A stretch of 64,000 bases of DNA from an uncultured Planctomycetia bacterium (GCA_964642015.1 CAZXLF010000001.1:254375-318374), one strand, 5' to 3'. Counted from the stretch's first letter, positions 38,993 through 59,125 are shown. Numbers and translations: made by a program. Notes: generated by a model not told the origin, from the sequence alone.

Positions 38993-39135
38993 AACTTTTG
39001 AGTTTTTAGTCACCGTATTATAGTTGTATATACAAAAGTATTATGCTACAATGACCCCTTTCGATTTAATCCCAAACCGGGTTTTCGTAGGGCTATCTGA
39101 TCAGAGAAGTGTTAAAAAACAAAAAGGACCATGAG

Positions 39136-39351: not shown

Positions 39352-39356
39352 TCTTT

Positions 39357-40405: not shown

Positions 40406-41178
40406 TGTCATTGACTGATATTGATAAAGCGATTTTACCTGAAATTATCAACATCGCCGAAGATGCGGGCCGATCGATCTTAAGGATCTATTCGCTTAGC
40501 GATTTTGGTATCGTGATGAAAATCAATGATTCTCCTTTAACTTTGGCAGATACAGCGGCGCATGAAGCGATCGTGAGATCCTTGAACCGGTTGACGCCGG
40601 ATTGGCCGGTGTTGTCGGAAGAATCGAAATCCGTTCCTTATAATATAAGGAAGGAGTGGAAAACTTTTTGGATGGTCGATCCTTTGGACGGAACGAAGGA
40701 ATTCATTAAAAGGAACGGAGAGTTTACCGTAAACATTGCATTGATCAAAGGCAATGTTCCCGTGATGGGGGTCGTGCATGCGCCGGTGAAGCAGCTGACT
40801 TATTTTGCAGAAGATCGCCAAGGCGCTTTTAAAAGTATCGCCGGCGCTAAAGCGGAACGGATACAAACGGATAAAAAGCCTAAAGGGGTTTTGAAAGTCG
40901 TCATTAGTCGTGATCATATCGGCGGCGAAATGGAAGCATTTCTAAAAACTCTCGAACATTATGAAGCGGTGCACGTGGGAAGTTCGTTGAAATTTTGTTT
41001 GGTGGCCGAAGGTCAGGCGCATCTTTATCCTCGTTTTTGGCCCTGCATGGAGTGGGACACCGCAGCGGCGGAGTGTGTGGTGCGCGAAGCTGGAGGTAGC
41101 GTGAAAGATCTTTCGGGAAATAACTTGAAATACAATAAACCTGATCTTCTAAACCCATATTTTATCGTCAAAGCATAA
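40366..41178 (+). CDS. cysQ: 3'(2'),5'-bisphosphate nucleotidase (inositol monophosphatase superfamily)
   Basis: 'WMVDPLDGTKEFI' metal-binding motif (DPxDGT) and 'GSSLKFCLVAEGQA'. Genomic pairing with APS kinase supports a CysQ role. GTG start at 40366 or 40405. Confidence 0.75.
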   Translation: MCESYIERDGDRIVSLTDIDKAILPEIINIAEDAGRSILRIYSLSDFGIVMKINDSPLTLADTAAHEAIVRSLNRLTPDWPVLSEESKSVPYNIRKEWKTFWMVDPLDGTKEFIKRNGEFTVNIALIKGNVPVMGVVHAPVKQLTYFAEDRQGAFKSIAGAKAERIQTDKKPKGVLKVVISRDHIGGEMEAFLKTLEHYEAVHVGSSLKFCLVAEGQAHLYPRFWPCMEWDTAAAECVVREAGGSVKDLSGNNLKYNKPDLLNPYFIVKA

Positions 41179-41193
41179 AAGAAAGGGAGCAAC

Positions 41194-41865
41194 ATGGAAG
41201 AAATTATGGAGCTGGATCTGAACAAGCCGGGAAGTATAGGGGAAAAGTCTTTCAATATTTTATGGGAAAAAATAAAAAGTTTAGCGGCAAAAAATATATT
41301 GGAATTCGGAAGCGGTGTAAGCTCGATCAGAATGGCTAGAGCTTTCCCGGAGACGAACATCGTCTCGATCGACCATGACCTTAAGTATTATAGGAAGACG
41401 CATACCTTGAAACGGAAATATTGTCCCGGTTCCAATTTGAACATCCTGTTTTCACCGCTTCGATATCAATGGTCGAGCGGAAGTCTGTTCTTGAGTTATG
41501 CCAAAAATAAATTTAGCGGGATCTTTGATTGTGTGATCATCGATGGCCCTCAAAGCTGGCTAACCCTTAGGGGCAGGGAAGTTTGTTTGTATAAGGTCTA
41601 CGAAAATTTAAGGATTGGTGCAGTGGTGGTACTGGACGATTATTCAAGAGAGGAAGAAAAGACCGTTCTCAAAAACTGGCTTTTGACCTATCCCGGCAGT
41701 TTTAGAGTGGACGTTGTCGAGGAAGGTCATCATCTGGTTTTTTTGACAAAGGTAAAGCAGGTAAAGCCGCGTTATTTTTGCTGGTCGAAGTTTATCGACA
41801 ACCTGCAGACAAATATACATTTGTTTTTAAGATCATTTAAAAGAAGGTTTATTCCAGCGCATTAA
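41194..41865 (+). CDS. putative class I SAM-dependent (O-)methyltransferase
   Basis: 'NILEFGSGVSSIRMA' glycine-rich motif I followed by 'VVLDDY' acidic motif. The assignment is weak. Confidence 0.4.
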   Translation: MEEIMELDLNKPGSIGEKSFNILWEKIKSLAAKNILEFGSGVSSIRMARAFPETNIVSIDHDLKYYRKTHTLKRKYCPGSNLNILFSPLRYQWSSGSLFLSYAKNKFSGIFDCVIIDGPQSWLTLRGREVCLYKVYENLRIGAVVVLDDYSREEEKTVLKNWLLTYPGSFRVDVVEEGHHLVFLTKVKQVKPRYFCWSKFIDNLQTNIHLFLRSFKRRFIPAH

Positions 41866-41871
41866 CAAACT

Positions 41872-44205: not shown

Positions 44206-44225
44206 GAACCCAAGAAATTTAGAAC

Positions 44226-45377
44226 ATGAATATGAATGTGCTGATGCTCACGAGATATTTTCCGCCGGAGTTTGGTGGAGCTGCTATCCAGGCGACGTAT
44301 CTGGCAGACGAATTGAGAAAACAAGGGGCGAATATCGAATTCTATGTGGACAACGGTAGCCGTAAGACAGCTGTTGACTTGTATAATGGCACCAAAGTCT
44401 ATAGGGACAGGACCTATGCGGATAAAGGTTTTTTGCGCAATTGGATTTACTATTTCAAACTGTTTTTATTTATAGCCCGTAATCCAAAATACAAAATATT
44501 GCATTTTCATTCAATGAACGGTATTGAGTCTATCTGGTTCCCATTTTTCAGGCTCATGAAAAGAAAGATTATATTCAAGTTAACGCTTGTAGGCATTGAT
44601 GATCCTCAGAGTTTCAGAAAAAGAAAGATGGGATTTTTTATTTGTTGGGCGCTTGGTTTTGTCGATAAATTCGTGGCTATATCCAAAGCACTTTTTGAAA
44701 AATCTACGTCGGCTGGGATCAAAAAGGACAAAATAGTTTATATTCCAAATGGGGTCAACGTTGAAAAATTCAACCGGATCGAAACCTTAAAAAAGAATGT
44801 GCTGAAGGCGAAACTTGGATTAAGCAGTTTTTCAAAGATCTTTTTTTCTGTCGGAAAAATTGAACTGCGCAAGGGTTATGATTTTTTGTTAAATGCCTGG
44901 ATCAAAATTTGCGACACTTTTCCGGCATCGGTGCTTATCATAGGAGGCCCCGGCAATGTGCCGGAAAATGAGTATTATCTGAAACTTCAAAACATGATAA
45001 AGGAAAATGGATTAAAAAATATCATCTTCCTTGGTCAGATTGATAACGTGGATGAGTATATGAAGATATCGGACGCGTTCTTGTTTTGCTCGCTTCGAGA
45101 AGGTTTTGGGAATGTTCTGATCGAAGCTATGTCCACCGGTGTTCCGGTCGTATCGCGCTATCTTCACGGGATAACCGACGATATTATAATTGATCCTGAA
45201 ATCGGCCGGGTTGTTAAAGAAGATTCATTTGAAAAATACGCTGATGAAGTCATTTCATTTATTCAAAATATCAACCAAGAGAAATCACTAAAGGCGTCAG
45301 AAAAAATAAGATCGAAGTTTGATATTAAAATCATTAGCAGACAATATACAGAGCTTTACCAGGCGCTGAGCATATGA
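44226..45377 (+). CDS. glycosyltransferase family 4
   Basis: 'VLMLTRYFPPEFGGAAIQATYLADEL' and 'EGFGNVLIEAMSTGVPVVS'. Confidence 0.8.
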   Translation: MNMNVLMLTRYFPPEFGGAAIQATYLADELRKQGANIEFYVDNGSRKTAVDLYNGTKVYRDRTYADKGFLRNWIYYFKLFLFIARNPKYKILHFHSMNGIESIWFPFFRLMKRKIIFKLTLVGIDDPQSFRKRKMGFFICWALGFVDKFVAISKALFEKSTSAGIKKDKIVYIPNGVNVEKFNRIETLKKNVLKAKLGLSSFSKIFFSVGKIELRKGYDFLLNAWIKICDTFPASVLIIGGPGNVPENEYYLKLQNMIKENGLKNIIFLGQIDNVDEYMKISDAFLFCSLREGFGNVLIEAMSTGVPVVSRYLHGITDDIIIDPEIGRVVKEDSFEKYADEVISFIQNINQEKSLKASEKIRSKFDIKIISRQYTELYQALSI

Positions 45378-46513
45378 GTCAACATAAAATACTTCATGTC
45401 ATTAAGACATTAAATCTTGGTGGAGCAGAGACAAATCTCTTAAATCTTCTTAGGGAAAGCAAAGACTCAGAAGATTATTATTTGGCTTATTCTTATGGCG
45501 GAAAATTTGAAGAAGAATTTCGGAATCTTGGGATAAGTTTTTATAAATATGCCGGCTGCGAACATAAGGTTAAAAGTTTCGCATCTTTGGCCATTATTCT
45601 TAAATTGGCGCTATTTATCAGACGAAATAAGATTCAGATCGTGCATACTCATAATTACAACAGCCATGTTTGGGGAGCGTTGGCCGGGAAGCTTGCCGGA
45701 GCAAAGGTCGTCGAGCATGTCCACGATTTTCGTTATGAAAAAGCCGATTATCTAAAGGAAAGGGGATTGAATCCGAAACAGTTCAAGACGGCTGTTTTTT
45801 TCAGCAGATTTTCGGACCGCATCCTTGTGCTGACCAAGAATAATCAAAGATACTTGATCGAGAACGGAGTCCCCGCTGAAAAGATCGTTCTTATACCGAA
45901 CGGTGTCCCGCTTGGCTTTGATTTGAACGGCGGCCGTCCAGGTCTTTTGGACTCTTTATCGATCCCAAGCGGCAAAAAGATCTTATTATCAGCGGCAAGG
46001 ATATCCGTTGAAAAAAATATAGGATTTCTTTTGGATATTGCCTCACAGTTGAAGCGCGAAGATATTCTTTTTTTGATCGCGGGAGATGGGTCTCTTAAAA
46101 AAGAGCTGGAAGAGCGCACTATAAAAGAGGGCCTTGAAGAAAAGGTAAAATTCATCGGTTTTTATCCTGATGTCAAAAGATTGCTCGGAGTTTCAACTTT
46201 ATTTCTTCAGCCCACTTTACTTGAACTTCATTCGATCACGATGCTTGAGGCGATGAGCATGGGCGTGCCGGCGCTTGTCTCCAAAGGTGTCGGTTGTAAT
46301 GATGATTTTATCGAAAACGGTAAGAACGGGTTTCTGCTTGATCCTTGCGATGCCAAAGCATGGGCGAAAATAGTAGGGACTCTGCTGGATGACGAGAAGC
46401 TCTCCGCTAAAGTGGCCGGTGAAGGGCAGAGACTGATTGAGAACCAATACGATATTGAAAAGACAGTCAAAGCGATTGAGGGGATTTATAGGGAACTTGT
46501 GAGGGAAGAATAG
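45374..46513 (+). CDS. glycosyltransferase family 4 (paralog of 17173-18321)
   Basis: 'ILHVIKTLNLGGAETNLLNLL' and 'LELHSITMLEAMSMGVPALVSKGVGCNDD' are collinear with the 17173 gene. Confidence 0.8.
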   Translation: MSQHKILHVIKTLNLGGAETNLLNLLRESKDSEDYYLAYSYGGKFEEEFRNLGISFYKYAGCEHKVKSFASLAIILKLALFIRRNKIQIVHTHNYNSHVWGALAGKLAGAKVVEHVHDFRYEKADYLKERGLNPKQFKTAVFFSRFSDRILVLTKNNQRYLIENGVPAEKIVLIPNGVPLGFDLNGGRPGLLDSLSIPSGKKILLSAARISVEKNIGFLLDIASQLKREDILFLIAGDGSLKKELEERTIKEGLEEKVKFIGFYPDVKRLLGVSTLFLQPTLLELHSITMLEAMSMGVPALVSKGVGCNDDFIENGKNGFLLDPCDAKAWAKIVGTLLDDEKLSAKVAGEGQRLIENQYDIEKTVKAIEGIYRELVREE

Positions 46514-47850
46514 TGATAAAAAGTATTTTTGATTATAGGATCTATCTGACCATTGGGGTAGGGTGTCTCCTCTCGTTCGTTCTGGTCAGCGGACTGCCGT
46601 GGTATTACGCCGTAGGATTTATGTTTGTGTGGGTGATTACTCTGATCGCCATCAATAATCCGCTCCATTTTTTATTCGCACTTTTTTTGATAAGACCAGC
46701 TCTTGATTCCGTGCTTTCGGGAATGCGTTTCGGCGATACCGGTGGTTTCGGTTTTGGGGGAGCCGTGTCATTATTTTTGATCGTATTGACAGGTTTTTAT
46801 ATGCTGACCTCTCCGAATAGTCTTAGAGGGTTCAGTCAACCGATCGTGAAAATGTATCTTGTTTTTATCGCAATCAGTGCGTGTTCCTATTTTTTTCCTC
46901 AGGATAAAGTGACTATATCAAAAACCCTTATCAATTATGTGGCAATCTTATCTATTACATTGCTCACTTTCCTTTTATCCAAAACGGAAAAAGAAACACG
47001 CGTGATCATCCGTTCTATCGTGTTGTCCCCGATGCTATGTCTCAGCTTAGGCATTTTTACGAATAAGCGCAGTGTAGACGGAAGATTTGCCGCGACGTTC
47101 GCGCATCCTAATATTCTGGCTTTTTATCTTCTGATCATCATCGGCTGTCTTTTGCTGAATATAGAGAGTTATAAACGAGAAAAGAAATTTTCGACTATAA
47201 AGAAATTTTATTTCCTGATATTGGTCACCGCACTGGCGTTCACTCAAACTAGAAGCGGATGGGGTGCTTTCGTGGTCATGCTGGGAATCTACTCACTTTT
47301 TTTCAACAGAAAGTTCATTTTACCGGGCATTATCATGTTGTTAGTTCTTTTATGCGTACCATTCGTGAAAGAGCATATTGCGAATATTTTTCATTCCCAT
47401 GGAAAATTAATACAGGTCAACGAACAGAGTTCGTTGGGATGGCGTTTTGAGAAATGGAGTTATTTATGGACGCCCATTACCAAAAAACCCTTGACCGGAT
47501 ATGGGATAGGCGCAGCAACCGAATATGGCAAAGATAAGCTGGGCGCGCATAATGATTATCTTCGTTTTCTGATAGAGTCAGGGATATTCGGCCTTATTTC
47601 TTATTTTCTGCCGTTCTGGTACATGCTCTACCGGGCTATTAAAGATAGGAAGGGATTAAATGAACAAAGTATCACTTACCGGCTTGCGCAATTTTTCATC
47701 ATTTTTATTCCCGCGTTTCTTGTCATGAGCATCACTGAGAATCTTGGAAATTATGTCATTATTCAATGGTATATTTGGGCGCTTTTCGGGATCTATTTTG
47801 GCTTGATATCCGCACGCTCTGAACACATTTCCAACCATGCAAAACGCTGA
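46513..47850 (+). CDS. Wzy-like O-antigen polymerase/ligase family membrane protein, copy 2
   Basis: 'HPNILAFYLLIIIGCLL' and 'LAFTQTRSGWGAFVVML' match blocks of 18314-19723. Confidence 0.65.
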   Translation: MIKSIFDYRIYLTIGVGCLLSFVLVSGLPWYYAVGFMFVWVITLIAINNPLHFLFALFLIRPALDSVLSGMRFGDTGGFGFGGAVSLFLIVLTGFYMLTSPNSLRGFSQPIVKMYLVFIAISACSYFFPQDKVTISKTLINYVAILSITLLTFLLSKTEKETRVIIRSIVLSPMLCLSLGIFTNKRSVDGRFAATFAHPNILAFYLLIIIGCLLLNIESYKREKKFSTIKKFYFLILVTALAFTQTRSGWGAFVVMLGIYSLFFNRKFILPGIIMLLVLLCVPFVKEHIANIFHSHGKLIQVNEQSSLGWRFEKWSYLWTPITKKPLTGYGIGAATEYGKDKLGAHNDYLRFLIESGIFGLISYFLPFWYMLYRAIKDRKGLNEQSITYRLAQFFIIFIPAFLVMSITENLGNYVIIQWYIWALFGIYFGLISARSEHISNHAKR

Positions 47851-49030
47851 ATTAGAACTTAAAAACGAGAACATCATTTGCTTTGCCGGTGAAGATTGGT
47901 GGTATCACAATCCGCATTCCAATTTTCACATCATGAAATCCTTCGCCAAAGAGAACCGTGTACTTTTTGTGAATTCGATCGGTGTAAGTGCGCCCAACAT
48001 GAATGATAAGTATGTCTGGAAAAGGATAGGGAATAAGATCAAGAGTCTTGCACGTTATTTAAAAAAAGTCGAAAAAAATATCTATGTGCTTTCGCCGATA
48101 GCCTTGCCTCTTATTAAAGGTCATGAAAAAATAGTCCAGCGGTTCAATAAATTTTTGATTTTGCTTCAAATGAAAGTTATTTTAAAAATAATTCGATTTG
48201 AAAAACCTATTCTTTGGGTATGTGCTCCTTCATTTGCTGATGTTGCCCTGGCTTTAAAAAAACGGGCGAAGTGCTTGATCTATTATTGTGTCGATAACAT
48301 TACTTTTTATAGCGGAGAAATGAATCCATACATTTTGGATCTCGAGATCAAATTGCATTCTAATGCGGATGCCGCTTTGTTTGTCAACCATCGGCTTGTG
48401 GAAGAAAGAAAGAAATTTAACCCTAAAACTTACCATATAGGACATGGAGTGGATTATGACCATTATGCGGTATGCCAAAATGGCCATCTGTCTATACCTT
48501 CTGATATGGAGGAGATAAAGGCTCCGATCGTGGGATATATAGGTGTTATTCGCGGAGTGAACCTTGAGCTGGTAAAGTTTTTGGCGGACAAAAATCAAGA
48601 CGTCTCATTTGTATTCATTGGCGACATTCAACAGGACATTTCAAGTCTTAAAGATATCGGGAATGTCCATTTTTTAGGCCGAAGAGAATACAGGTTATTA
48701 CCGCAATATATGCAAAAAATGTCTTGTTTCGGGATTTTTTATCAGATCAATGATGTATTTAACAATTACAGAAATCCGAAGAAGCTTCTGGAATATTTTG
48801 CATCCGGAAAGCCTATTGTATCAGTTCCGATATTGGAGCTAGAGTATTTTAAAGAACTTGTTTACATCGCTGAGAATTATGAGGCGTTCGACCATTTTAT
48901 AAAAAAAGCATTGTACAACGATAGCCCGGAATTAAGGAAAATGCGCATTCAATTTGCCAAAGAGCATACCTGGGATGTTATTTCGAGCGAGTCCTCACAA
49001 TATATTTTTCAAGCGATAAAGGGGACATGA
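47837..49030 (+). CDS. putative GT-B fold glycosyltransferase (divergent)
   Basis: No strong signature. C-terminal 'YRNPKKLLEYFASGKPIVS' resembles the GT1/GT4 nucleotide-sugar binding helix. Context only. Confidence 0.4.
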   Translation: MQNAELELKNENIICFAGEDWWYHNPHSNFHIMKSFAKENRVLFVNSIGVSAPNMNDKYVWKRIGNKIKSLARYLKKVEKNIYVLSPIALPLIKGHEKIVQRFNKFLILLQMKVILKIIRFEKPILWVCAPSFADVALALKKRAKCLIYYCVDNITFYSGEMNPYILDLEIKLHSNADAALFVNHRLVEERKKFNPKTYHIGHGVDYDHYAVCQNGHLSIPSDMEEIKAPIVGYIGVIRGVNLELVKFLADKNQDVSFVFIGDIQQDISSLKDIGNVHFLGRREYRLLPQYMQKMSCFGIFYQINDVFNNYRNPKKLLEYFASGKPIVSVPILELEYFKELVYIAENYEAFDHFIKKALYNDSPELRKMRIQFAKEHTWDVISSESSQYIFQAIKGT

Positions 49031-49908
49031 TGGAACGGCTGGAGAGCGTCAAGAGTTTTTGGAATTCAAATCCATGTGGGAGTCGGTCATCGGATGACCA
49101 GAACAGATCAAATTATTTCAAGGAGGTCGCTTCTAAGAGATATGACGCAGAATTTCATATTCCTGAAATAGCTAAATTTGAGAATTTTAAGGATCGCGAT
49201 GTTTTAGAAATAGGTTGCGGATTAGGGACTGACGGCCTTCAATTTGCGAAAGCGGGAGCCCGCTATGTAGGCGTGGATCTGACCCCGGCAGCTGTCAGCT
49301 TATCCAAAGAGCATTTCAGTCTTTTTAATATTAACGGAATATTTTTTGAGGTTAATGCTGAAAAGCTGCCTTTTCCAGATAATAATTTTGATCATGTTTA
49401 CAGTTTTGGCGTTATACATCATTCCCCCGATATTGAAGCGATCGTCAGAGAGATATACCGTGTTCTCAAGCCAAACGGGACGTTTTGCATTATGATTTAT
49501 AACAAATCATCTATTAATTATTACCTGGAAATAATGTTCTTTAGAAAGATCTTTAAGCGCCTGCTTTATCCCGCATTTATGCCTTCATTCTTGTCAAAAT
49601 GTTTCGGCTTTAGCAAGGATAAATTGGAAGAACATAGGAAAATTCTGTGGAATGCTAAGAAAATCTCAAAGGAAAAATGGATCAGCATCAATACCGATGG
49701 GCCTAATTGTCCGTTGGCAAGAGTGTACAACAAGGAGGAAGCGTTTGAGCTTTTTAGAAAATTTGAAGACATAAGAAGCGAAGTCCGTTTCTTTGACAAA
49801 TCTCACTGGCCTCTCTTGAGGAACTTGTTGCCAAAATCCGCGGTATCATGGCTCGGAAATCGCTGGGGATGGCACAGAATGGTGTATGGAAAAAAACCTT
49901 CTTATTGA
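49027..49908 (+). CDS. class I SAM-dependent methyltransferase (Methyltransf_11-like)
   Basis: 'DVLEIGCGLGTDGLQFAKAGARYVGVDL' motif I, 'FDHVYSFGVIHH' motif II/III region. Confidence 0.75.
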   Translation: MMERLESVKSFWNSNPCGSRSSDDQNRSNYFKEVASKRYDAEFHIPEIAKFENFKDRDVLEIGCGLGTDGLQFAKAGARYVGVDLTPAAVSLSKEHFSLFNINGIFFEVNAEKLPFPDNNFDHVYSFGVIHHSPDIEAIVREIYRVLKPNGTFCIMIYNKSSINYYLEIMFFRKIFKRLLYPAFMPSFLSKCFGFSKDKLEEHRKILWNAKKISKEKWISINTDGPNCPLARVYNKEEAFELFRKFEDIRSEVRFFDKSHWPLLRNLLPKSAVSWLGNRWGWHRMVYGKKPSY

Positions 49909-51130
49909 TAAAGACTTTAAGGTCGATATAACCGATCAAAGTTATTTACGGCCTATGATCGATTCTTTCTTGGGATGGCTTGATAAAAACGGCTATGCCG
50001 GCTATGACGCGTATGATCTGTGGGCTACGCGATACGGAATTTTTTCAAGGAAGATCTATTACAAGAACAAATTTTTATCCGCGCCTTTTGTTGCGCCGGT
50101 CGTATTGGCGGAGATGCTTTGCCCTGGCTTGAGCCGTTTGTTTTTACGGAGGCACCGCTTTGCGATCGCTGACGCGCATTTTATCTTGGGTTATCTAAAT
50201 CTTTTTTCGGCGACGAAAGAAGAGCGATATCTTAAAGAAGCGACCAAGCTTTCGGATGAATTATTGGGCCAAAGCGTCAGCGGGTATTCCGGCATATGCT
50301 GGGGCTATCCATTTGACTGGCAAAATAACCGCGGGCTCTGGAAAAAGGGAACGCCTTTTGTCACCGTAACGCCTTATGGCATGGAAGCGATGCTTGCGCT
50401 ATATGATGCGACAAAGGATAAAAAATATCTGGATCAAGCGCTTTCAAGCGCACAGTTCATTTTGAAAGATATCCGTGATACCAAAACCTCGGATGACGCG
50501 TCGGCATGCTCTTATTCGCCGCTGGATGAAAGCAAAGTCGTGAACGCGAGCGCTTACCGCGCTTTTGCGCTTACGGAAGCGTTCCATAGATCCCAGCAAA
50601 AAGAATTTCAGGAAAAAGCGCTGAGGAATCTCAATTTTGTGCTTCAAAGTCAAAAACCCGACGGTTCATGGCTTTATGCCGAAGGCAATTCGCAGGATGC
50701 TTTCATAGATAATTTTCATACTTGTTTTGTGCTGAAAAATCTCTGCAAGCTGAACCGGCATCTAAAAAGCGCGGATGTAGAAGGTGCGATCATTAAGGGT
50801 TATGGATATTATAGGAAGCAGCTGTTCGATAAGAGCGGGGAGCCCAAACCTTTTGCTGGAACAAAGAGCGGCCAATTCGTGAGGTATGAGTTGTACGATT
50901 TTGCCGAAGCGATCACATTGGGGACTCTATTAAAAGAAAAAGTATTAGGAGCTTTTGAATTGTCAAAAACGTTAGCAGAAAAGGTGATGAAAAATTACCA
51001 GCTTCGTGACGGACATTTTGTCACGCGTGTTTATAAGTCGGGCACCAAAAACTCCGTACCTTATATCCGCTGGCCTCAAGCGCAGATGTTTTATGCACTG
51101 ACCAGCCTTTTAAAGGAAGTGAGCGGCTGA
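49886..51130 (+). CDS. hypothetical protein, possible alpha/alpha-toroid fold
   Basis: 'QKPDGSWLYAEGNSQDAFIDNFHTCFVL' repeat reminiscent of the 4515 and 24400 proteins, and 'ICWGYPFDWQN'. No confident family assignment. Confidence 0.35.
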   Translation: MEKNLLIDKDFKVDITDQSYLRPMIDSFLGWLDKNGYAGYDAYDLWATRYGIFSRKIYYKNKFLSAPFVAPVVLAEMLCPGLSRLFLRRHRFAIADAHFILGYLNLFSATKEERYLKEATKLSDELLGQSVSGYSGICWGYPFDWQNNRGLWKKGTPFVTVTPYGMEAMLALYDATKDKKYLDQALSSAQFILKDIRDTKTSDDASACSYSPLDESKVVNASAYRAFALTEAFHRSQQKEFQEKALRNLNFVLQSQKPDGSWLYAEGNSQDAFIDNFHTCFVLKNLCKLNRHLKSADVEGAIIKGYGYYRKQLFDKSGEPKPFAGTKSGQFVRYELYDFAEAITLGTLLKEKVLGAFELSKTLAEKVMKNYQLRDGHFVTRVYKSGTKNSVPYIRWPQAQMFYALTSLLKEVSG

Positions 51131-51131
51131 T

Positions 51132-53039
51132 ATGTGCGGCATAGCGGGTGTATTTAATTTCCAAAGTCAAGACACGGTCTCAGAGGAGCTTCTTAAACGG
51201 ATGTGCGACGCGATCAAGCACCGCGGGCCGGATGACGAAGGATTCTTTATCGACCCGGTTTCGCGCGTCGGGTTTGGTCATCGACGGCTCAGCATTATCG
51301 ACCTGTCCGGCGGAAAACAGCCGATGCCGAACGATGCGGAAGATGTCTGGATCGTATTCAACGGTGAGATCTATAATTTTCCGGAACTAAAAAAAGAACT
51401 ATTGGACAAAGGATATGTTTTCAGAAATAGATCCGATACCGAAGTGATCGTGAATCTTTATAAAGAATACGGCGTCGAAGCTTTTGACCGGTTGAATGGC
51501 ATTTTTGCTTTCGCGATCTATGATAAAAAAGATCGCTCAGTGATCCTGGCAAGAGATCGTTTTGGTGTAAAACCGCTTTATTATTGGCTCAATAAAGGGA
51601 AGGTCGTCTTCGCCTCGGAAATGAAGGCAATATTTCAAGATGAGTCTGTCCCGAAAGAGTTGGATACGGAATCGCTGGATAGCTTCCTAACTTTTCGTTA
51701 TAACCCTTCCCCGCAAACGATGTTCAAGGGTGTTAAAAAATTGTACCCGGGACATTATCTGAAGATCGAACTGGACAAAGGATGGGAACTTAAAAGTTTT
51801 ACTCAAGACAGCCCGAGGATCGACGTGCGTATCAGCGAGCAAGATGCTGTCGCGGAATATAGAAGACTTCTCGAAGCGGCGGTCAAGCGTCAAATGATCA
51901 GCGATGTGCCGGTAGGCCTTTTCTTAAGCGGGGGCGTGGACTCGGCGGTGCTTGGAGTGCTGATGCAGAAGCACTATAAGGAAAAAATAAACACGTTCAC
52001 GATCGGCTTTGAAGGGCAGGGTGATTACAACGAGCTGGAAGACGCGAGAGTGTCCGCAAAGCTGATCGGCTCCGATCATCATGAGATGACGCTGTCGCAG
52101 GCGGATTATATGAAATTTTTTTATGAATCATTCACCGTCACGGAGGAACCGATCGCTGAGACGACGATCCCGGCGCTTTACTATGTATCCAAGCTTGCGG
52201 CCAAGCACCTTAAGGTGGTGCTGGCAGGCCAAGGGGCAGATGAGCCGATGGCGGGTTATCACCGGTATCTGGGAGCGCATTTTATAGGGAAGTACGGAAA
52301 TATTTTGAAAGCATTGCCGCTTGGACTTGCGTCAAAATTCATCCCCCGGAATGAGCGCTTCAAAAGAGCTGTCTATGTGAGTCGTTTTTCCGGGGAGCTC
52401 GAAAAGATCCTTGCGATCTATACGATCTTTGATCCCGAACAGAAAAAACTCCTTTATAACGGCCGGGCGCACACGAATGGAAATAATGTTAATGAAACCA
52501 TAACGAACCGGCTGTATGCCGAAGCCAAAGATCTGCCGGATATGCTTTCAAAAATTCTATACATAGATACGCGAATGAGCTTACCGGACGATCTTTTGCT
52601 TTTCAACGACAAGATCACAATGGCCAATTCTCTGGAAATGCGCGTACCTTTTCTGGATATAGAACTTGTAAAATTTCTGGAATCTCTGCCTTCGTCGATG
52701 AAATTGAAGGGCACGCAGCGCAAGTATATCCATAAAAAAGCTGTCGAGGCGTGGCTGCCGAATGAGATCATTTATAGGAAGAAAAGGGGATTTATGACAC
52801 CGATGGATGAATGGCTGCAGAATGATATGGCATTGACGGTAAAAAAGATCGTTAATGATAAAGCATCGGCTTCCAGGAAGTTTTTTGATGTGGGATATAT
52901 CGACAGAATGATCGATCTTCACAGAGCTAGGAAGGAAAATTATCAGCGCCACATTTTCGCGCTTTTGTCATTCGAGCTTTGGTATAAAACTTTTTTTGAA
53001 AATAAAACTTTTGTAGTGCCCCAGCTTATAGGTCAATAA
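51132..53039 (+). CDS. asnB: asparagine synthetase-type glutamine amidotransferase (exosortase/EPS-locus-associated AsnB homolog)
   Basis: N-terminal nucleophile 'MCGIAGVFNF', class-II GATase domain and a PP-loop synthetase domain 'FLSGGVDSAV'. 635 aa. Confidence 0.85.
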   Translation: MCGIAGVFNFQSQDTVSEELLKRMCDAIKHRGPDDEGFFIDPVSRVGFGHRRLSIIDLSGGKQPMPNDAEDVWIVFNGEIYNFPELKKELLDKGYVFRNRSDTEVIVNLYKEYGVEAFDRLNGIFAFAIYDKKDRSVILARDRFGVKPLYYWLNKGKVVFASEMKAIFQDESVPKELDTESLDSFLTFRYNPSPQTMFKGVKKLYPGHYLKIELDKGWELKSFTQDSPRIDVRISEQDAVAEYRRLLEAAVKRQMISDVPVGLFLSGGVDSAVLGVLMQKHYKEKINTFTIGFEGQGDYNELEDARVSAKLIGSDHHEMTLSQADYMKFFYESFTVTEEPIAETTIPALYYVSKLAAKHLKVVLAGQGADEPMAGYHRYLGAHFIGKYGNILKALPLGLASKFIPRNERFKRAVYVSRFSGELEKILAIYTIFDPEQKKLLYNGRAHTNGNNVNETITNRLYAEAKDLPDMLSKILYIDTRMSLPDDLLLFNDKITMANSLEMRVPFLDIELVKFLESLPSSMKLKGTQRKYIHKKAVEAWLPNEIIYRKKRGFMTPMDEWLQNDMALTVKKIVNDKASASRKFFDVGYIDRMIDLHRARKENYQRHIFALLSFELWYKTFFENKTFVVPQLIGQ

Positions 53040-53163
53040 GTTCAATAACTAGTGTCGATATCATCAATAATTAATAAAAATTAATCCTATTTTAATATTT
53101 TTTTAATCATACATTTTATATGATAAGCACGTATTACTTATACGCAAAGATCGTAAAAGTCTG

Positions 53164-53192
53164 TTGCACTTGACCCATTGAATTAGTATAAT
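53164..53192 (+). promoter_or_regulatory. putative sigma70-type promoter (TTGCAC-17-TATAAT)
   Basis: -35 'ttgcac' 53164-53169, 17-nt spacer, perfect -10 'tataat' 53187-53192, inside a 150-bp AT-rich intergenic region after asnB. This implies the downstream gene starts at ATG 53203 rather than 53191. Confidence 0.3.
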
Positions 53193-53202
53193 GCTACCCG
53201 CT

Positions 53203-54087
53203 ATGGAAGCTGTAATGGAAGCCAACAACTTATATCTGGACCACACCGAAAAGAAGAAAAGGGCGCTTATTTTCGGCTCTTTGGTCGATCCCTTGACGAT
53301 GGAAGAGACGCTGCAAAGCGTCGAGCGGATCGTTGACTCCCGCCAGACCGTCCAGCATGTTGTGATCAATGTCGCGAAGCTCGTGTTGATGCAGAAGGAC
53401 GAACATCTCAGGCAGATCGTGAACTCTTGCGGACTTATCAATTGCGACGGGCAGGGCGTGATCATGGGTGCCAAATTTTTGGGCATGCGGATCCCCGAGC
53501 GTGTGACCGGCATCGATCTTTTTTTGAATCTCGTCGAACGTTCCGAGCAGAAGGGCTATAAGCTGTATTTCTTCGGTGCGACAGAGCAAGTTGTTCAAAA
53601 AACGATCCGCGAGCTCCGGTCACAATACCCTGATCTAAAGATCGCCGGTTATCATAATGGTTATTACTCTCGCGAGCAGGAAGCGGAGATCGTTCAGGAC
53701 ATCAAAGCATCCGGTGCCGATATTTTGTTTGTCGCGATGAGCTCGCCTCAGAAAGAAATTTTTTTGAACAAATATATTCATGAAATGAACGTGCCTTTTG
53801 TAATGGGCGTCGGCGGCAGTTTTGATATTGTAGCCGGAGTGACTTTTAGAGCGCCTCTTTGGATGCAGAAAGCAGGGCTTGAATGGTTCCACCGCCTTTT
53901 GAATGAGCCCGCACGTATGTGGAAAAGATATCTTACTTCGAACAGTATCTTTTTGTGGATGCTGATCAAGGCGAAGCTTTTTGGCAAGGAAAGATACGGC
54001 TGTTTCCAGGAAGACCGCCGCCAGAACTGGCAGAGAACAGAGCCGGTTGAGGCCTATTTCACGGGCCAGGCCGCCGAAAATCTTTAG
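53203..54087 (+). CDS. WecB/TagA/CpsF-family glycosyltransferase (GT26), copy 2
   Basis: 'LIFGSLVDPLTMEETLQSVERI...VINVAKLVLM...INCDGQGVIMGAKF...YFFGATEQV' is collinear with 20616-21377. Confidence 0.75.
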   Translation: MEAVMEANNLYLDHTEKKKRALIFGSLVDPLTMEETLQSVERIVDSRQTVQHVVINVAKLVLMQKDEHLRQIVNSCGLINCDGQGVIMGAKFLGMRIPERVTGIDLFLNLVERSEQKGYKLYFFGATEQVVQKTIRELRSQYPDLKIAGYHNGYYSREQEAEIVQDIKASGADILFVAMSSPQKEIFLNKYIHEMNVPFVMGVGGSFDIVAGVTFRAPLWMQKAGLEWFHRLLNEPARMWKRYLTSNSIFLWMLIKAKLFGKERYGCFQEDRRQNWQRTEPVEAYFTGQAAENL

Positions 54088-54124: not shown

Positions 54125-54973
54125 ATGAAGCAGGTTTTACGCGCTCAACAAAAGAGCTTTGATATTTTCGATATTCTTGTCGCTGTCTCGGCAGGGATCA
54201 TGTTCGGCCCGACATTTTGCCGTCTCGCGACGCTGGGCTGGATCCAGGCCGATTATACGCACGCTTATTTTATATTTCCCATATTCATTTGGCTTGTCGC
54301 CAGAAAAAAGAAACTGCTTGCCAAAAGCGAAGACCTCTCTTTATTTGGGGCGGTGCTTTTTACCGCGGGGCTTACGGTCTACGTCTTTTCTGCGCTGAGC
54401 CGCTTCATGTTCCTTGAAGGCGTATCGCTTGTCGTCGTGGTGTGGGGCTTATTCAAACTTAAGTTTACGCGCGAGTCATACAAAAAAATACTATTTCCTC
54501 TGGCGTATCTGATATTTCTTATCCCGCCGCCGAAGCTTGTTATCGACACTGTTACGTCACCGCTTAAGATCATCAGCACGGACGGGAGCTATTTTCTTTT
54601 GAAACTGGTGCATCTGCCCGTATCAGTCCACGGCGCTATTCTTAAAGTAGGGGAATATGAGCTTTTCGTGGCGGACGCATGCAGCGGGTTCCGTTCGATG
54701 GTGACGCTTCTGGCGCTCGGCGCGTTGTACTCTTATCTTCAGCCGCTTTCTGCGAAAAAGAAATGGACTCTTTTTTTGTCAACGATCCCATTGGGCATTG
54801 CCGGCAATACGCTGAGACTTTTTTTGACCGGATGCATCGCTCATTTTGCCGGCATCCGCTATGCCGAAGGATTCTTTCATGAATTATCGGGCGCCGTGAT
54901 GTTCATATTTACGGTACTCGGCTTGATGTTCATTTCGACAAAACTCACCAGCAAGCCCAGCTTCAAAACGTGA
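54125..54973 (+). CDS. exosortase (EpsH/Xrt family transpeptidase)
   Basis: 282 aa polytopic membrane protein carrying the exosortase catalytic signature 'VADACSGFRSM' (conserved Cys followed by Arg) and the downstream 'AGNTLRLF' (conserved Asn...Arg). Confidence 0.8.
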   Translation: MKQVLRAQQKSFDIFDILVAVSAGIMFGPTFCRLATLGWIQADYTHAYFIFPIFIWLVARKKKLLAKSEDLSLFGAVLFTAGLTVYVFSALSRFMFLEGVSLVVVVWGLFKLKFTRESYKKILFPLAYLIFLIPPPKLVIDTVTSPLKIISTDGSYFLLKLVHLPVSVHGAILKVGEYELFVADACSGFRSMVTLLALGALYSYLQPLSAKKKWTLFLSTIPLGIAGNTLRLFLTGCIAHFAGIRYAEGFFHELSGAVMFIFTVLGLMFISTKLTSKPSFKT

Positions 54974-55695
54974 CGCTGAATCGATCTGCTTTTAGGGATT
55001 TGACACTCGCCGTTTTGATGATCGCCGCTTTCTTTCTGGTGATCAGTCATCCCGCCAAAAAGATCAACACGCAAAAAAAACTTTATATCGCTTCGCAGAT
55101 ACCGGAAAAATTCTCGGCATGGGACAGCCGTACCTATGATACGTCCGACTATTCGGATAAATGGCACTCGATCAATGAGCTTTTGATCAGGAATTATTTC
55201 AAGGCCACGCCATTTTCATTCAGAAGCCCAGCGGTCAATATCGGATTCATCACTGAGTTCAGCAGCGATATCCGGCAGAATTTCAGTTTTCATTTTCCGG
55301 AGAATTGTCACCGCGCGGGCGGAAATGATGTCGAGTTTTTGAAGCCGCTCCAAGTGGATCTGGGCAGCGGAAAGCATTTGCTGGCGAAGCGTATTTTCAT
55401 CAAAGGCCGTCTGGCATCCGAAGAAAAAGATGACAAGATCGTGACTTATTGGATCGTCATGGACGGAAAGCAATATTACAGGACGTTCTTTATCAAACTT
55501 GACCAAATGCTTTCAGGACTTCTCACGCACGCGAAACAGGGTATCTTGGTCAGGATCGATTATCAGCAGGATTTTGAATATTCTCCAGAAGGTATCGAGA
55601 AGGCCTCAAAAGTGACAGGGGATTTTATCAAAGACCTGTACGGTTCTCTGGATACCGAAAAAAGACGATTGATCTTCGGTAAAGAACTCGCTTAA
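54970..55695 (+). CDS. EpsI-family exosortase-associated protein
   Basis: N-terminal TM anchor plus the EpsI hallmark 'HFPENCHRAGGND' (H-x-P-E-x-C...GG). GTGA overlap with the exosortase stop. Confidence 0.7.
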   Translation: MTLNRSAFRDLTLAVLMIAAFFLVISHPAKKINTQKKLYIASQIPEKFSAWDSRTYDTSDYSDKWHSINELLIRNYFKATPFSFRSPAVNIGFITEFSSDIRQNFSFHFPENCHRAGGNDVEFLKPLQVDLGSGKHLLAKRIFIKGRLASEEKDDKIVTYWIVMDGKQYYRTFFIKLDQMLSGLLTHAKQGILVRIDYQQDFEYSPEGIEKASKVTGDFIKDLYGSLDTEKRRLIFGKELA

Positions 55696-55823
55696 GAAGG
55701 CCCGCCGGCTAAATTTGAATTTCATAAATTCATACTGTACACTTTGATTGAAGCCGAAGTGAGGACTGTCGGCTTCCAGTTTTTTTGGATGCATTTGAAA
55801 AACTTTTATAATAAGAGGACACT

Positions 55824-56126
55824 ATGAAGAAGTCACGATATGGAAAAAAGCGCGCATTGCGCATCAAGACATGCCGCGCTGTCAAATTTCTAGCGGCTTA
55901 CACGCTGATCTACATCGTCGCGTCGTTTTGCTTTCATCTGTCCATGGACCTTAGAAGCAGTAATTTCACACTATGGGAATATGGTTGGCTGGCTGTGAAA
56001 ATACCTGTTTTTGGTTTCTGCCTGATGATGCTTTTCCGCCGCGTGATCATTGATTCCGTGATACGCGTCCGCCGGACGAAATCCTACCGCTTTAATCCAA
56101 ACCGCTCTTCGGCGCTTGCCTCGTAA
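55824..56126 (+). CDS. small two-TM membrane protein, hypothetical
   Basis: Basic N-terminus followed by two hydrophobic helices. No motifs. Confidence 0.3.
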   Translation: MKKSRYGKKRALRIKTCRAVKFLAAYTLIYIVASFCFHLSMDLRSSNFTLWEYGWLAVKIPVFGFCLMMLFRRVIIDSVIRVRRTKSYRFNPNRSSALAS

Positions 56127-56167
56127 TCCGAGCTATCGTATACTGACCCCACGATCAAGGAGGGCGT

Positions 56168-56911
56168 ATGCGCATAGCAAGATCTTACGGATGGGTACCG
56201 GATGTTCCCGATCACCGCGATTATCTTTATAAAAATATTCGCCGTAAATTACGTCCGCCGAAAAAAATCGACCTGAGGATTTTTTGTTCACCGGTAGAAG
56301 ATCAGGGGCAGCTGGGAAGCTGCACGGCGAATGCGTTGGCAGGCAATATGGAATTTGTGGATGTAAAAACCCCGCCGAGCGGATATGTCGATGTGAGCCG
56401 ACTTTTCATTTACTACAATGAACGCGTGCTGATCCATACGGTCAAGAACGACTCGGGCGCGATGCTGCGTGACGGCATCAAGACGTTGACGAAGCAGGGT
56501 GTTTGCACAGAAAAGAGCTGGCCTTATCTGATAAGTAAATTTACGGATAAACCTCCCCAGACTTGTTTTGATGAAGCCAAGAAGCGCCGCATAATTTCTT
56601 ATCACCGAATCCTCACCCATGAAGAACGCCTATCATGCCTGACTGAAGGGTATCCGTTCGTTTTCGGGTTCACGGTCTATGAAAGCTTTGAGTCCCAAAC
56701 GGTAGCAAAAACAGGGGTGGTGCCGATGCCGTCAAAAGCAGAGCGTACCGTAGGCGGCCACGCGGTCATGGCGGTCGGATATGATGATAAAAGCAAGCGC
56801 TTTTTGGTGCGGAATTCATGGGGAAACGGATGGGGAATGAGCGGATATTTCACAATACCCTATAAATACCTCGATACACTCGCGGATGATTTCTGGACGA
56901 TCAGAAAATAG
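56168..56911 (+). CDS. papain-like (C1 family) cysteine peptidase, no signal peptide
   Basis: Catalytic Cys block 'QGQLGSCTANALAG', His block 'VGGHAVMAVGYDD', Asn/Trp block 'NSWGNGWGMSGYF': the Q-C-H-N tetrad of the papain fold. Confidence 0.75.
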   Translation: MRIARSYGWVPDVPDHRDYLYKNIRRKLRPPKKIDLRIFCSPVEDQGQLGSCTANALAGNMEFVDVKTPPSGYVDVSRLFIYYNERVLIHTVKNDSGAMLRDGIKTLTKQGVCTEKSWPYLISKFTDKPPQTCFDEAKKRRIISYHRILTHEERLSCLTEGYPFVFGFTVYESFESQTVAKTGVVPMPSKAERTVGGHAVMAVGYDDKSKRFLVRNSWGNGWGMSGYFTIPYKYLDTLADDFWTIRK

Positions 56912-57040
56912 TTTCTAAACCTTGCAAAGATTCAATTTATGTGAAAATTGATTCAATGTAGCATATTCCAATCCTGTTATTTAAGCTTTAACAATCCTAT
57001 TAATTTTTACACATTGGGGCTTTTTTTAGCAAAGTATGGC

Positions 57041-57069
57041 TTGACTGTATTTTTGCCGTTTGGTAAATT
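57041..57069 (+). promoter_or_regulatory. putative sigma70-type promoter (TTGACT-17-TAAATT) upstream of the PEP-CTERM gene
   Basis: -35 'ttgact' 57041-57046, 17-nt spacer, -10 'taaatt' 57064-57069, ~57 nt upstream of ATG 57127. Confidence 0.3.
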
Positions 57070-57126
57070 AACCACAGTCGATTTTTAAAAATTAGTCACA
57101 TTAAAATTTTTTTTGAAGGGAACACA

Positions 57127-57873
57127 ATGAAAAAAACATTCCGCGCGATTTTAGCAGTTACAATTTTATCGATCCTCGTGATGCCGAGCGCATTCGCGCA
57201 ATTCAATGTGAATTGGGGCACAAGCCAGGATGATGGGAATTTTGGATACCAGGATCTCGGTACTTGGTTCAAGAACAACGGCTATGCGCCAGACCAAGCC
57301 TCCGGTGAAAATTTCGCGAAGACCGGTTATATCGGCTTCAACGGCGGCGATGCGGATCCTTATTATTTCGGACCGACGACCTCAGCGACTCTTCAGGTGG
57401 TTCAGCGTATAGCGGGTAATGCGGATCTGACGACGTTGGGTTACTATACGGGTTCCGGTGCGGGCAAGACACTCACTCAGGTGCTAGGCCTCAATCAGAA
57501 TGGCCCAGCAACAGTAAATAATTTATCAAATCCATTTGGCTTGTATTTTAGCTCGCCTGATAACTATAGGAGCAGCACATATAACACTTGGTATACGAAC
57601 AGAGCGGAGAATTCTCAAGCGGGTGTTCCCAATAATGCAGGCGGAGATCCTCAGGCGCTGATCTATTCGTTAGGCAAGGGTCAGTGGCTTATCGCATGGG
57701 ATGATATGGACGTGACCACGGGGCTTTCTGACAGAGATTATAACGATGCTTATGTCAAATTGACCACGACCGTGAACCCCGAGCCTGTCAGCTCGCTTCT
57801 TTTTGCTTTGGGCGGTTTGGTGTTGGCTGCGGGTATCTTCATGCAGCAGAGAAAGGCCGTTGCGGTTAGGTAA
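57127..57873 (+). CDS. PEP-CTERM sorting-domain secreted protein (exosortase substrate)
   Basis: Signal peptide 'MKKTFRAILAVTILSILVMPSAFA'. C-terminus 'VNPEPVSSLLFALGGLVLAAGIFMQQRKAVAVR' is the tripartite PEP motif, hydrophobic helix and basic tail. Confidence 0.8.
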   Translation: MKKTFRAILAVTILSILVMPSAFAQFNVNWGTSQDDGNFGYQDLGTWFKNNGYAPDQASGENFAKTGYIGFNGGDADPYYFGPTTSATLQVVQRIAGNADLTTLGYYTGSGAGKTLTQVLGLNQNGPATVNNLSNPFGLYFSSPDNYRSSTYNTWYTNRAENSQAGVPNNAGGDPQALIYSLGKGQWLIAWDDMDVTTGLSDRDYNDAYVKLTTTVNPEPVSSLLFALGGLVLAAGIFMQQRKAVAVR

Positions 57874-57896
57874 TATTTCATAAATTTATTTTAAAG

Positions 57897-57926
57897 AACG
57901 GGAGTCTTCGGACTCCCGTTTTTTTA
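57897..57926 (+). terminator. rho-independent terminator
   Basis: 'aacgggagtc-ttcg-gactcccgtt' perfect 10-bp stem with a GNRA-like loop, followed by 'ttttttt'. Confidence 0.7.
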
Positions 57927-57976
57927 TGTCTAAAAAATACTGAAAGATTTCTTATGAGTCTGGTATGATGGTGCGC

Positions 57977-59125
57977 ATGAAAAAAAGAAAAGTAGCGATC
58001 GTGTTCGGTACAAGGCCCGAGGCGATCAAAATGGCGCCGATCGTCAAAACGCTTGAAAAAGACCGCGCCCGCATTCAGCCTGTCGTAGTGGTCACTGCCC
58101 AGCACCGCCACATGCTTGATCAAATCCTCCATATATTTCGCATCAAGGCGGACCATGATCTGAACGTGATGTCGAATAATCAGACTCTCGCCGATATCGT
58201 GTCCGTCTCGGTAACGCGTATCAGCCATGTTTTTGCTCAAGAAAAACCGGACCTTGTTCTGGTCCAGGGCGATACCACGACGAGCTTTATCGCGGCGCTC
58301 GCCGCTTACTTTCATAAGATCCCTATCGGGCATGTCGAAGCGGGTCTGAGGACCTATAATAAATACGAACCATTCCCCGAAGAGATGAATCGCCGCCTTG
58401 CCGGAGTTTTGACCGACTTGCATTTTGCGCCTACAAAGACTTCCTATAATCATCTTGTCAGAGAGGGAGTGGATAAGAAAAATATTTTCATCACCGGCAA
58501 TACGGTCATCGATGCGCTTCTGATGACCGTGAAAAAAAAGTTTGATCTCCGCAAGATCCGGGACGCACATCTTGCGGAAAAATTGTCGAAAGTGGATTTT
58601 AAACGGCGCCGCATTATTTTGGTAACCGCGCACCGCAGGGAAAGTTTCGGCAAACCTTTTCTCAGTATCTGCGGGTCCATCAAAGAGATCGTCGAAAAGA
58701 ACAAAGACGTCGAAGTGATATACCCGGTGCATCTGAATCCTAACGTGCAGGAGCCGGTGAACAAGATCCTCGGAGGGCTTGATCGTGTGCATCTGATCCC
58801 GCCGCTGGATTATGAAGTGTTTACTCAGCTGATGAAAAGAAGTTACCTGATCCTCACGGATTCAGGCGGTGTGCAGGAAGAGGCACCGTCGCTGGGTAAG
58901 CCGGTTTTGGTGATGAGAAATGTTACCGAGCGCCCTGAGGCGGTGAAAGCCGGTACCGTACGTCTGGTCGGAACCGACAAGCGCGTGATCCTGCGCGAAG
59001 TCCAACGGCTTCTTGATAGTAAAAAAGCATATCGGGCCATGTCCCGCAGCCATAATCCCTATGGCGACGGCAAGTCCGCGGCCCGCATTCATAAGATTAT
59101 TCTCCGATATCTGTCTAATAAATAA
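57977..59125 (+). CDS. wecB: UDP-N-acetylglucosamine 2-epimerase (non-hydrolysing)
   Basis: 'KVAIVFGTRPEAIKMAPIV' canonical N-terminus, 'VQGDTTTSF', 'HVEAGLRTY' and 'TDSGGVQEEAPSLGKPVLVMR' blocks. Confidence 0.85.
   Translation: MKKRKVAIVFGTRPEAIKMAPIVKTLEKDRARIQPVVVVTAQHRHMLDQILHIFRIKADHDLNVMSNNQTLADIVSVSVTRISHVFAQEKPDLVLVQGDTTTSFIAALAAYFHKIPIGHVEAGLRTYNKYEPFPEEMNRRLAGVLTDLHFAPTKTSYNHLVREGVDKKNIFITGNTVIDALLMTVKKKFDLRKIRDAHLAEKLSKVDFKRRRIILVTAHRRESFGKPFLSICGSIKEIVEKNKDVEVIYPVHLNPNVQEPVNKILGGLDRVHLIPPLDYEVFTQLMKRSYLILTDSGGVQEEAPSLGKPVLVMRNVTERPEAVKAGTVRLVGTDKRVILREVQRLLDSKKAYRAMSRSHNPYGDGKSAARIHKIILRYLSNK

Follow-up and report, generated by a model that had tools for sequence, protein, structure and literature searches.

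Gene content of the region

The window analysed here, a stretch of 64,000 nucleotides (nt) deposited as an uncultured Planctomycetia bacterium (GCA_964642015.1 CAZXLF010000001.1:254375-318374), carries an exosortase module in which a papain-family cysteine peptidase is embedded among the genes for protein sorting. Five open reading frames (ORFs), all on the plus strand, make up this module, with the coordinates and motifs given in a preliminary description of the DNA. The first encodes an exosortase of the EpsH family (54125-54973, 282 amino acids (aa), with the motif VADACSGFRS), and the second an EpsI-family exosortase-associated protein (54970-55695, 241 aa, HFPENCHRAGG). These are followed by an orphan ORF with two hydrophobic segments that is doubtful as a gene (55824-56126, 100 aa), by a leaderless xylellain-type short C1A (papain-family) cysteine peptidase (56168-56911, 247 aa), and by a PEP-CTERM protein that is the putative cognate substrate of the exosortase (57127-57873, 248 aa, ending in ...NPEPVSSLLFALGGLVLAAGIFMQQRKAVAVR). 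Judging from homologues of the encoded proteins, the host is probably a member of Omnitrophota.

The exosortase, EpsI and the PEP-CTERM protein

The identity of the exosortase, proposed earlier from its catalytic motif, is borne out by profile searches and alignment. The protein passes both PF09721 (188.9 bits against a cut-off of 25.7) and TIGR02602 (159.2 bits against 105.55) and bears the TIGR04178 signature (67.4 bits, cut-off 23). In an alignment with seven related exosortases, the conserved Cys and Arg are kept as C186 (in ACSG) and R231 (in NxxR), both of which are invariant together with H252 (in FHE). No named Xrt subtype is reached: the protein is XrtA/XrtV-like, with 168.9 bits against 313 for XrtV and 165.7 against 208 for XrtA (TIGR03109), followed by 125.8 against 275 for XrtB and lower scores for the others. 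By these scores, it is an EpsH-family member outside every named subtype. The start of the EpsI gene and the exosortase stop overlap by 4 nt, and every related locus pairs the two genes. Its earlier designation as EpsI agrees with PF11984 (56.4 bits, above the cut-off of 26.1) and with its position adjoining the exosortase, but not with TIGR02914, where 38.4 bits fall just under the cut-off of 42.8. The best EpsI subtype is the B-type, with 62 bits against a cut-off of 220.

The PEP-CTERM protein begins with a signal-like hydrophobic helix and ends in NPEPVSS-LLFALGGLVLAAGIF-MQQRKAVAVR, which comprises a PEP motif, a transmembrane (TM) helix and a basic tail. Its family is small, with 22 proteins at 40-62% identity, two of which have source names, both Omnitrophota/Omnitrophica. 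Of the PEP motif, E219 and P220 are kept without exception across 23 homologues, and P218 in nearly all; examples of PEP-CTERM tail ends are ...GIFMQQRKAVAVR and ...GLAGFRKKK. This C-terminal architecture supports the earlier designation of the protein as a PEP-CTERM substrate, though the window protein itself matches neither the PF07589 nor the TIGR02595 profile. Within the family, PF07589 matches 10 of the 22 members (E<=0.01) and TIGR02595 gives a weak match in 18 (E<=1).

The protein had also been described as lacking any recognisable domain, a statement that needs to be amended. A weak match to DUF4114 (PF13448) is found at 21.1 bits, under the gathering cut-off of 27, and the same domain is matched by 21 of the 22 family members (E<=0.01; lowest E-value 2.4e-6). 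The likeness to DUF4114 proteins lies in an Asp-rich signature, SDRDYNDMYVK, that is conserved across the family. Because 21 of 22 homologues match, membership of the family in DUF4114 is likely, though the window protein stays under the cut-off. An AlphaFold (AF2) model (pLDDT 84.6) predicts a beta-sandwich preceded by the signal helix and followed by the C-terminal TM helix. The best matches of this model among solved structures are LecB/PA-IIL-like calcium lectins (BC2L-A and the BC2L-C C-terminal domain), with an E-value of 1.5e-3 and TM-scores of 0.27 (query) and 0.50 (target). As this structural match is weak, sugar or calcium binding by the DUF4114-type protein is only a lead.

Genes of this PEP-CTERM family adjoin an exosortase-EpsI pair in five of five loci (the window and the related loci L002, L095, L096 and L097), and the exosortases concerned form two groups that are only ~30% identical to each other. 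A motif scan of the 64-kb window revealed no further PEP-CTERM-like ORF beyond the 248-aa one. Its adjacency to the exosortase and EpsI marks this protein as the predicted cognate substrate, which would be cleaved and sorted by the neighbouring enzyme. By analogy with characterised systems, the exosortase and EpsI would form a conventional pair carrying its own dedicated substrate, a secreted beta-sandwich protein of the DUF4114 type, whose PEP-TM-basic signal the exosortase would recognise and cut at the membrane. The cleaved protein may then stay with the cell surface or the exopolysaccharide (EPS).

The module resembles the XrtA-EpsI PEP-CTERM system in having an EpsH-family exosortase with the Cys, Arg and His residues, a separate EpsI and a PEP-TM-basic signal on a predicted secreted protein, as well as in its EPS locus, which contains homologues of XrtA-type export, chain-length, tyrosine-kinase and amidotransferase proteins. 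Unlike that system, the exosortase and EpsI of the window lie under all subtype cut-offs, including those for XrtA, XrtV and EpsI types B and V, and no PrsK/PrsR/PrsT-type regulators are seen in the examined part of the window. In two related loci, tetratricopeptide-repeat proteins are encoded downstream of the exosortase/PEP-CTERM block (L004 7979-9135; L008 15825-16741). A sigma-54 response regulator accompanies them in L004, and a GAF/PocR protein in L008, an arrangement reminiscent of PrsR/PrsT-type regulators.

A xylellain-type peptidase without a leader

The peptidase gene, whose ATG is preceded by AGGAGG, encodes a protein that passes PF00112 (Peptidase_C1) with 64.6 bits against a cut-off of 20.7. 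Its closest solved structure is xylellain of Xylella fastidiosa (PDB 3OIS), which it matches over residues 5-246 with an E-value of 7.9e-61. Xylellain is reported to bind a ribonucleotide (UDP). The residues Q46, C52, H198 and N216 are invariant among 22 homologues and aligned with those of xylellain and procathepsin H. By Kyte-Doolittle analysis there is no hydrophobic segment or leader anywhere in the protein, the 19-residue mean reaching at most -0.54 across the first 30 windows. Both the full Q/C/H/N catalytic set and the missing signal peptide, as previously reported for this enzyme, are upheld by these results. An AlphaFold model based on a 22-sequence alignment was too poor for use (pLDDT 49.5), so that the comparison relies on the 3OIS match in sequence.

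The likeness to xylellain covers nearly the full length of the protein and includes the catalytic tetrad, a short single domain, the lack of a classical signal peptide and an N-terminal G(W/Y)xPDxxDxRD motif. This motif is invariant as YGWxPDxPDxRD in the Omnitrophota homologues and lies inside the 3OIS match. Two differences are that the window peptidase lacks the ~26 extra N-terminal residues of xylellain, and that it is encoded in a glycan/exosortase operon, whereas xylellain has a phage-proximal or pathogen context (PMC12090721).

Searches with the peptidase recover a very large family, which counts 23,640 representatives clustered at 50% identity when the threshold is E<=1e-3, and 3,542 when it is E<=1e-30. 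In species-representative genomes, copies that are 57-67% identical occur in Omnitrophota, Desulfobacterota, Verrucomicrobiota, Bacteroidota and Acidobacteriota, and also in Nitrospirota, Chloroflexota, Gemmatimonadota and archaea. By sequence, the window enzyme is an ordinary member of this xylellain-type family with complete catalytic residues. The distribution of the family is spotty, with frequent horizontal transfer (PMC10380794). The function of such short bacterial C1A peptidases has been studied in two species only (PMC12090721; PMC10380794), and the substrate of xylellain is unknown (PMC12090721).

Genomic neighbourhoods of the peptidase

The loci assigned to Omnitrophota number 21 distinct cases, comprising eight close-homologue contexts (65-71% identity, with the window counted as L001) and 13 loci from species-representative genomes. 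The species-representative set as a whole holds 80 peptidase loci, the remaining 67 being from other phyla. Glycan genes were scored within 10 kb of the peptidase by labelling its neighbours with a reference set of glycan enzymes. By this measure, the peptidase lies in a glycan locus in 17 of the 21 Omnitrophota-assigned cases. At least two glycan genes are present at 10 of the 13 Omnitrophota genome loci versus 0 of the 67 loci of other phyla, and in seven of the eight close-homologue contexts, the eighth (L004) being cut by the contig end and showing one. The peptidase gene has the same strand as the glycan genes, with gaps mostly below 100 nt and overlaps of 4 nt in L006 and L012.

Linkage to sorting genes is found in a smaller share of these loci. 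The peptidase stands within 0-3 genes of exosortase, EpsI or PEP-CTERM genes, in several gene orders, at seven of the 21 Omnitrophota-assigned loci. Exosortase and EpsI lie within a few genes of it in five of the eight close-homologue contexts (the window, L002, L004, L008 and L012). The peptidase is downstream of EpsI in the window and L002, directly upstream of the exosortase in L004 (45-nt gap) and L012 (1-nt gap), and separated from the exosortase by an inserted AbiEii pair in L008, while L006, L010 and L014 are glycan loci with no exosortase within 8 kb of the peptidase. Among the 80 species-representative loci, two show a match to an exosortase hidden Markov model within 10 kb (L024 and L027), both of them in Omnitrophota, and none of the 67 loci of other phyla has an exosortase within that distance. 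The peptidase has PEP-CTERM genes as flanking neighbours in L002 and L027, and a homologue of the window's PEP-CTERM protein is beside the peptidase in the former. In a neighbour-joining tree, all Omnitrophota-assigned loci except L010 fall into one clade, within which the exosortase-linked peptidases occupy four separate positions. The suggestion that the enzyme might prove to be an ordinary singleton without exosortase co-occurrence fails in Omnitrophota, where seven of 21 loci are linked; in all other phyla sampled, the enzyme has no exosortase or glycan linkage.

Several of the Omnitrophota neighbourhoods contain further genes of interest. Mobile or defence-type genes beside the peptidase include a helix-turn-helix plus Fic arrangement, the AbiEii pair, 23S_rRNA_IVP four-helix proteins and ORF6N antirepressor-like genes (L006 8832-9512; L008 8770-9872; L010 7518-7900; L012 10254-11813), and an integrase gene is found ~5 kb downstream of the peptidase in L010. 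In L002, the closest related locus with an exosortase, a 7,212-aa ORF starts 265 nt downstream of the peptidase (9007-16741, running off the locus), and proteins of more than 1,300 aa adjoin the peptidase in L024 and L026.

Could the peptidase be functionally unrelated to its locus, a general intracellular or defence-type protease lodged in a recombination-tolerant, horizontally exchanged glycan region? The spotty family distribution with its frequent horizontal transfer (PMC10380794), the heterogeneous neighbours outside Omnitrophota, and the toxin-antitoxin, Fic, ORF6N, integrase and 23S_rRNA_IVP genes by the peptidase in L006, L008, L010 and L012 are all consistent with such a passenger, as is the GC content of the window's glycan cassette (0.38-0.44 vs about 0.47 elsewhere in the window). 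However, residency in glycan loci has been kept across an essentially monophyletic, deep Omnitrophota clade though the neighbours change, and the gene shares its strand with the glycan genes and closely adjoins or overlaps them. Such persistence would be unexpected for a neutral passenger. An unrelated protease is unlikely.

Outside Omnitrophota, the neighbours of the peptidase are heterogeneous housekeeping and regulatory genes, and a Pfam control, independent of the glycan reference set and covering 144 immediate neighbours and 149 at offsets 2-4, showed that glycosyltransferases are not enriched there. Among the immediate neighbours, a chagasin-type I42 inhibitor is the most frequent (5/144). 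All-against-all clustering of neighbours yielded no conserved cross-phylum partner gene, the largest cluster being a generic NAD-epimerase found at 15 loci. Homologues in Verrucomicrobiota and others have the I42 gene directly downstream, as is known for pairs of C1 peptidase and chagasin. In the two Verrucomicrobiota cases (L044 10729-11103; L047 10711-11103), the I42 gene overlaps the stop-to-stop reading frame that holds the peptidase gene, and three other loci carry I42. The two cases read in detail have no hydrophobic leader, which suggests that the I42 protein and the peptidase form cytoplasmic protease-inhibitor pairs. Unlike these pairs, the window contains no I42 gene, and the 100-aa ORF upstream of its peptidase is unrelated to I42.

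The missing leader of these inhibitors also bears on the location of the window enzyme. Xylellain-like peptidases are predicted to undergo non-classical secretion, as hypothesised for plant pathogens (PMC12090721), and the gene sits in a cell-surface locus, so that an exported enzyme acting outside the cell on surface or host/prey proteins may be envisaged. Such a role is highly improbable for a protein with neither a signal peptide nor a TM segment and with no secretion-system genes nearby, and the adjacent Verrucomicrobiota inhibitors, leaderless in the frames inspected, suggest a cytoplasmic pair instead.

The place of the peptidase in exosortase loci

When the search is reversed, a xylellain-type peptidase is found in 0 of 83 other exosortase loci, three of which were reached through the PEP-CTERM family and 80 through the exosortase profile. 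The former (L095, L096 and L097) have no C1 peptidase within 7 kb. The latter are metagenome loci, 31 of them at least 10 kb long, and they include L098, a 55%-identical relative with full flanks. The C1 peptidase distinguishes the window module from all 83, in keeping with the earlier remark that such an enzyme is no standard component of exosortase loci. Full-text literature searches for exosortase systems in Omnitrophota, for PEP-CTERM proteins of the DUF4114 type and for C1 peptidases at exosortase loci yielded no account of any of them. The linkage between peptidase and exosortase is real but lineage-limited and facultative in both directions, and for the latter reason the peptidase is not a core exosortase component. 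All components of the module are of known kinds, and the recurrent arrangement with an embedded peptidase is a lineage-specific variant.

The most probable explanation, to which a probability of roughly 0.7 can be assigned, is that of an ordinary exosortase/EpsI/PEP-CTERM module in which the peptidase is an Omnitrophota-specific accessory of envelope-glycan operons rather than a core part of the sorting machinery. The peptidase family as a whole is tied to no fixed genomic partner, and in the Omnitrophota clade the gene has settled in envelope-glycan operons, where in about a third of the loci it stands directly beside exosortase, EpsI and PEP-CTERM genes. The persistence of this residency as neighbours change, combined with the shared strand and the tight or overlapping junctions, argues for co-expression and some role. 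As gene order suggests, the peptidase most likely shares its expression with the glycan and sorting genes, and most likely serves inside the cell as an accessory protease that acts on some protein of the glycan/sorting pathway. The PEP-CTERM protein may be a target of the enzyme. Since the peptidase has no leader, it could presumably reach only cytoplasmic parts of that protein, namely the basic tail, or the precursor before export.

The earlier suggestion that the peptidase could process the PEP-CTERM protein or regulate the system from the cytoplasmic side is weakened by Omnitrophota glycan loci in which the peptidase lacks an exosortase within 10 kb, and by exosortase modules that encode the same PEP-CTERM protein but not the peptidase. 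Other points weigh against the accessory explanation itself. The linkage to the exosortase may be a by-product of a shared glycan super-locus, and gene order is the sole ground for proposing co-transcription and functional coupling. The region may simply tolerate insertions, since toxin-antitoxin, Fic and integrase-type genes stand by the peptidase in related contigs. The fractions given above are descriptive rather than statistical tests, because the loci were reached by way of homologues and are not phylogenetically independent of one another, and the Omnitrophota placement of the window rests on names in the records of homologues.

A closer tie to sorting would make the peptidase a dedicated partner of the exosortase pathway in the Omnitrophota lineage, working on the cytoplasmic face, where it would, for example, degrade the TM-plus-basic-tail remnant, trim or quality-control PEP-CTERM precursors, or turn over a regulator of the system. 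At seven distinct loci and in four gene orders, the peptidase adjoins exosortase/EpsI or sits between PEP-CTERM genes, and in L008 this adjacency is apparently broken only by the inserted AbiEii pair. In addition, at the end of PEP-CTERM tails a hydrophobic residue precedes Arg or Lys (e.g., GFRKKK), which would suit the cathepsin-L-like Phe-Arg preference that xylellain reportedly has. These observations stand against the 14 of 21 Omnitrophota-assigned peptidase loci that have no exosortase within 10 kb, the three exosortase modules of the same PEP-CTERM family with no peptidase within 7 kb, its absence from the 80 further exosortase loci, and the presence of a 57-67% identical enzyme in unrelated contexts in other phyla. 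A dedicated function of this kind is unlikely. Recruitment of a cytoplasmic xylellain-type peptidase in Omnitrophota as a working partner of the EPS/exosortase pathway as a whole is likewise improbable; if it occurred, the enzyme might clear the membrane-embedded TM/basic-tail remnants of exosortase cleavage, or its proteolysis of a pathway component might be coupled to the flux of glycan synthesis, possibly through nucleotide (UDP) binding. Recruitment of this sort, if true, would provide the first physiological substrate for the very large xylellain-type family and would also add a new accessory step to PEP-CTERM sorting.

Exosortase systems occur widely, as do short bacterial C1A peptidases, and both are poorly understood. 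With the peptidase kept in envelope-glycan operons, often touching the exosortase, Omnitrophota offer a concrete place to seek a physiological target of the enzyme. Given that the linkage is facultative in both directions, the value of the arrangement lies in a testable lead to the physiological context of a peptidase family of orphan function, not in a new system or mechanism.

The 100-aa open reading frame

The ORF between EpsI and the peptidase had been described as a two-TM protein. It does contain two hydrophobic windows, with Kyte-Doolittle means near 1.8, and AGAGGA upstream of its ATG is a plausible ribosome-binding site, but it is unproven as a gene. Among 5.8 billion proteins searched, the ORF matched itself alone, and no homologue is present in 94 related loci. 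Its in-frame codon score of 0.083, compared with 0.15-0.25 in the neighbouring genes, is no better than the 0.115 of a presumed spurious antisense ORF (57878-58792, minus strand, 304 aa) that lies almost wholly within wecB. The positive score of this antisense ORF means that such scores are weak in this sequence. A function of the 100-aa ORF as an inhibitor or conserved membrane partner of the peptidase was considered and rejected, as its one family match is noise (YnfA, E 0.02), it has no homologue, and its codon signal is weak. By these measures the ORF appears to be either a strain-specific orphan or no gene at all, and it is doubtful as anything more; it is not a conserved component of the module.

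The surrounding exopolysaccharide locus

By its gene content, the region forms the distal end of an exopolysaccharide locus of the Wzx/Wzy type, which spans ~29.6-59.1 kb of the window, and an exosortase-coupled EPS locus, as it was first called, is a fair description. The locus starts with a polysaccharide export protein, whose best match is the export protein of XrtA/PEP-CTERM systems, and a Wzz/tyrosine-kinase protein. Its middle part encodes CysC, CysQ, a Wzx flippase, GT4 transferases, a Wzy-like protein and a methyltransferase. Directly upstream of the module, profile matches identify an AsnB-type amidotransferase and a WecG/TagA-family glycosyltransferase (51132-54087, plus strand). For the amidotransferase, the XrtA-system profile TIGR03108 is the best match, at 520.6 bits under the equivalog cut-off of 816.9, and TIGR01536 scores 515 bits; the glycosyltransferase matches TIGR00696 with 162 bits.

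The module had been thought to close the glycan locus. It is not quite the end, because the gene for WecB, a non-hydrolysing UDP-GlcNAc 2-epimerase, follows on the plus strand (57965-59125; TIGR00236, 495 bits against a cut-off of 210). This wecB is the true last gene of the locus, after which cytochrome oxidase genes begin. In L002, unlike in the window, a wecB homologue lies upstream of the exosortase. The AT-rich gap of 215 nt upstream of the PEP-CTERM gene holds a promoter-like site identified by consensus scan (57041-57069, plus strand, TTGACT-17-TAAATT, with TG). The scan found 10 such sites in the region compared with 6.4 +/- 2.6 in shuffled sequence, a count not above expectation.

Between the export/Wzz genes and the glycan cassette are two minus-strand ORFs, 34190-36031 (613 aa) and 36157-38679 (840 aa), with zero Pfam or NCBIfam matches. 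The cassette is headed by genes for the adenylyl-sulfate kinase CysC (193 bits) and the 3'(2'),5'-bisphosphate nucleotidase CysQ (288 bits) at 39737-41178, a pair that suggests a supply of 3'-phosphoadenosine 5'-phosphosulfate (PAPS) for a sulfated polysaccharide. At 38001-50000, which contains the Wzx/GT4/Wzy cassette, the GC content is 0.38-0.44 compared with ~0.46-0.49 in the rest of the window, a pattern typical of variable, serotype-like glycan regions that are exchanged horizontally. Within the cassette, a 777-aa ORF (41872-44205) shows Wzx/MOP flippase homology spanning residues 1-466 only, and its C-terminal ~300 residues extend beyond the match.

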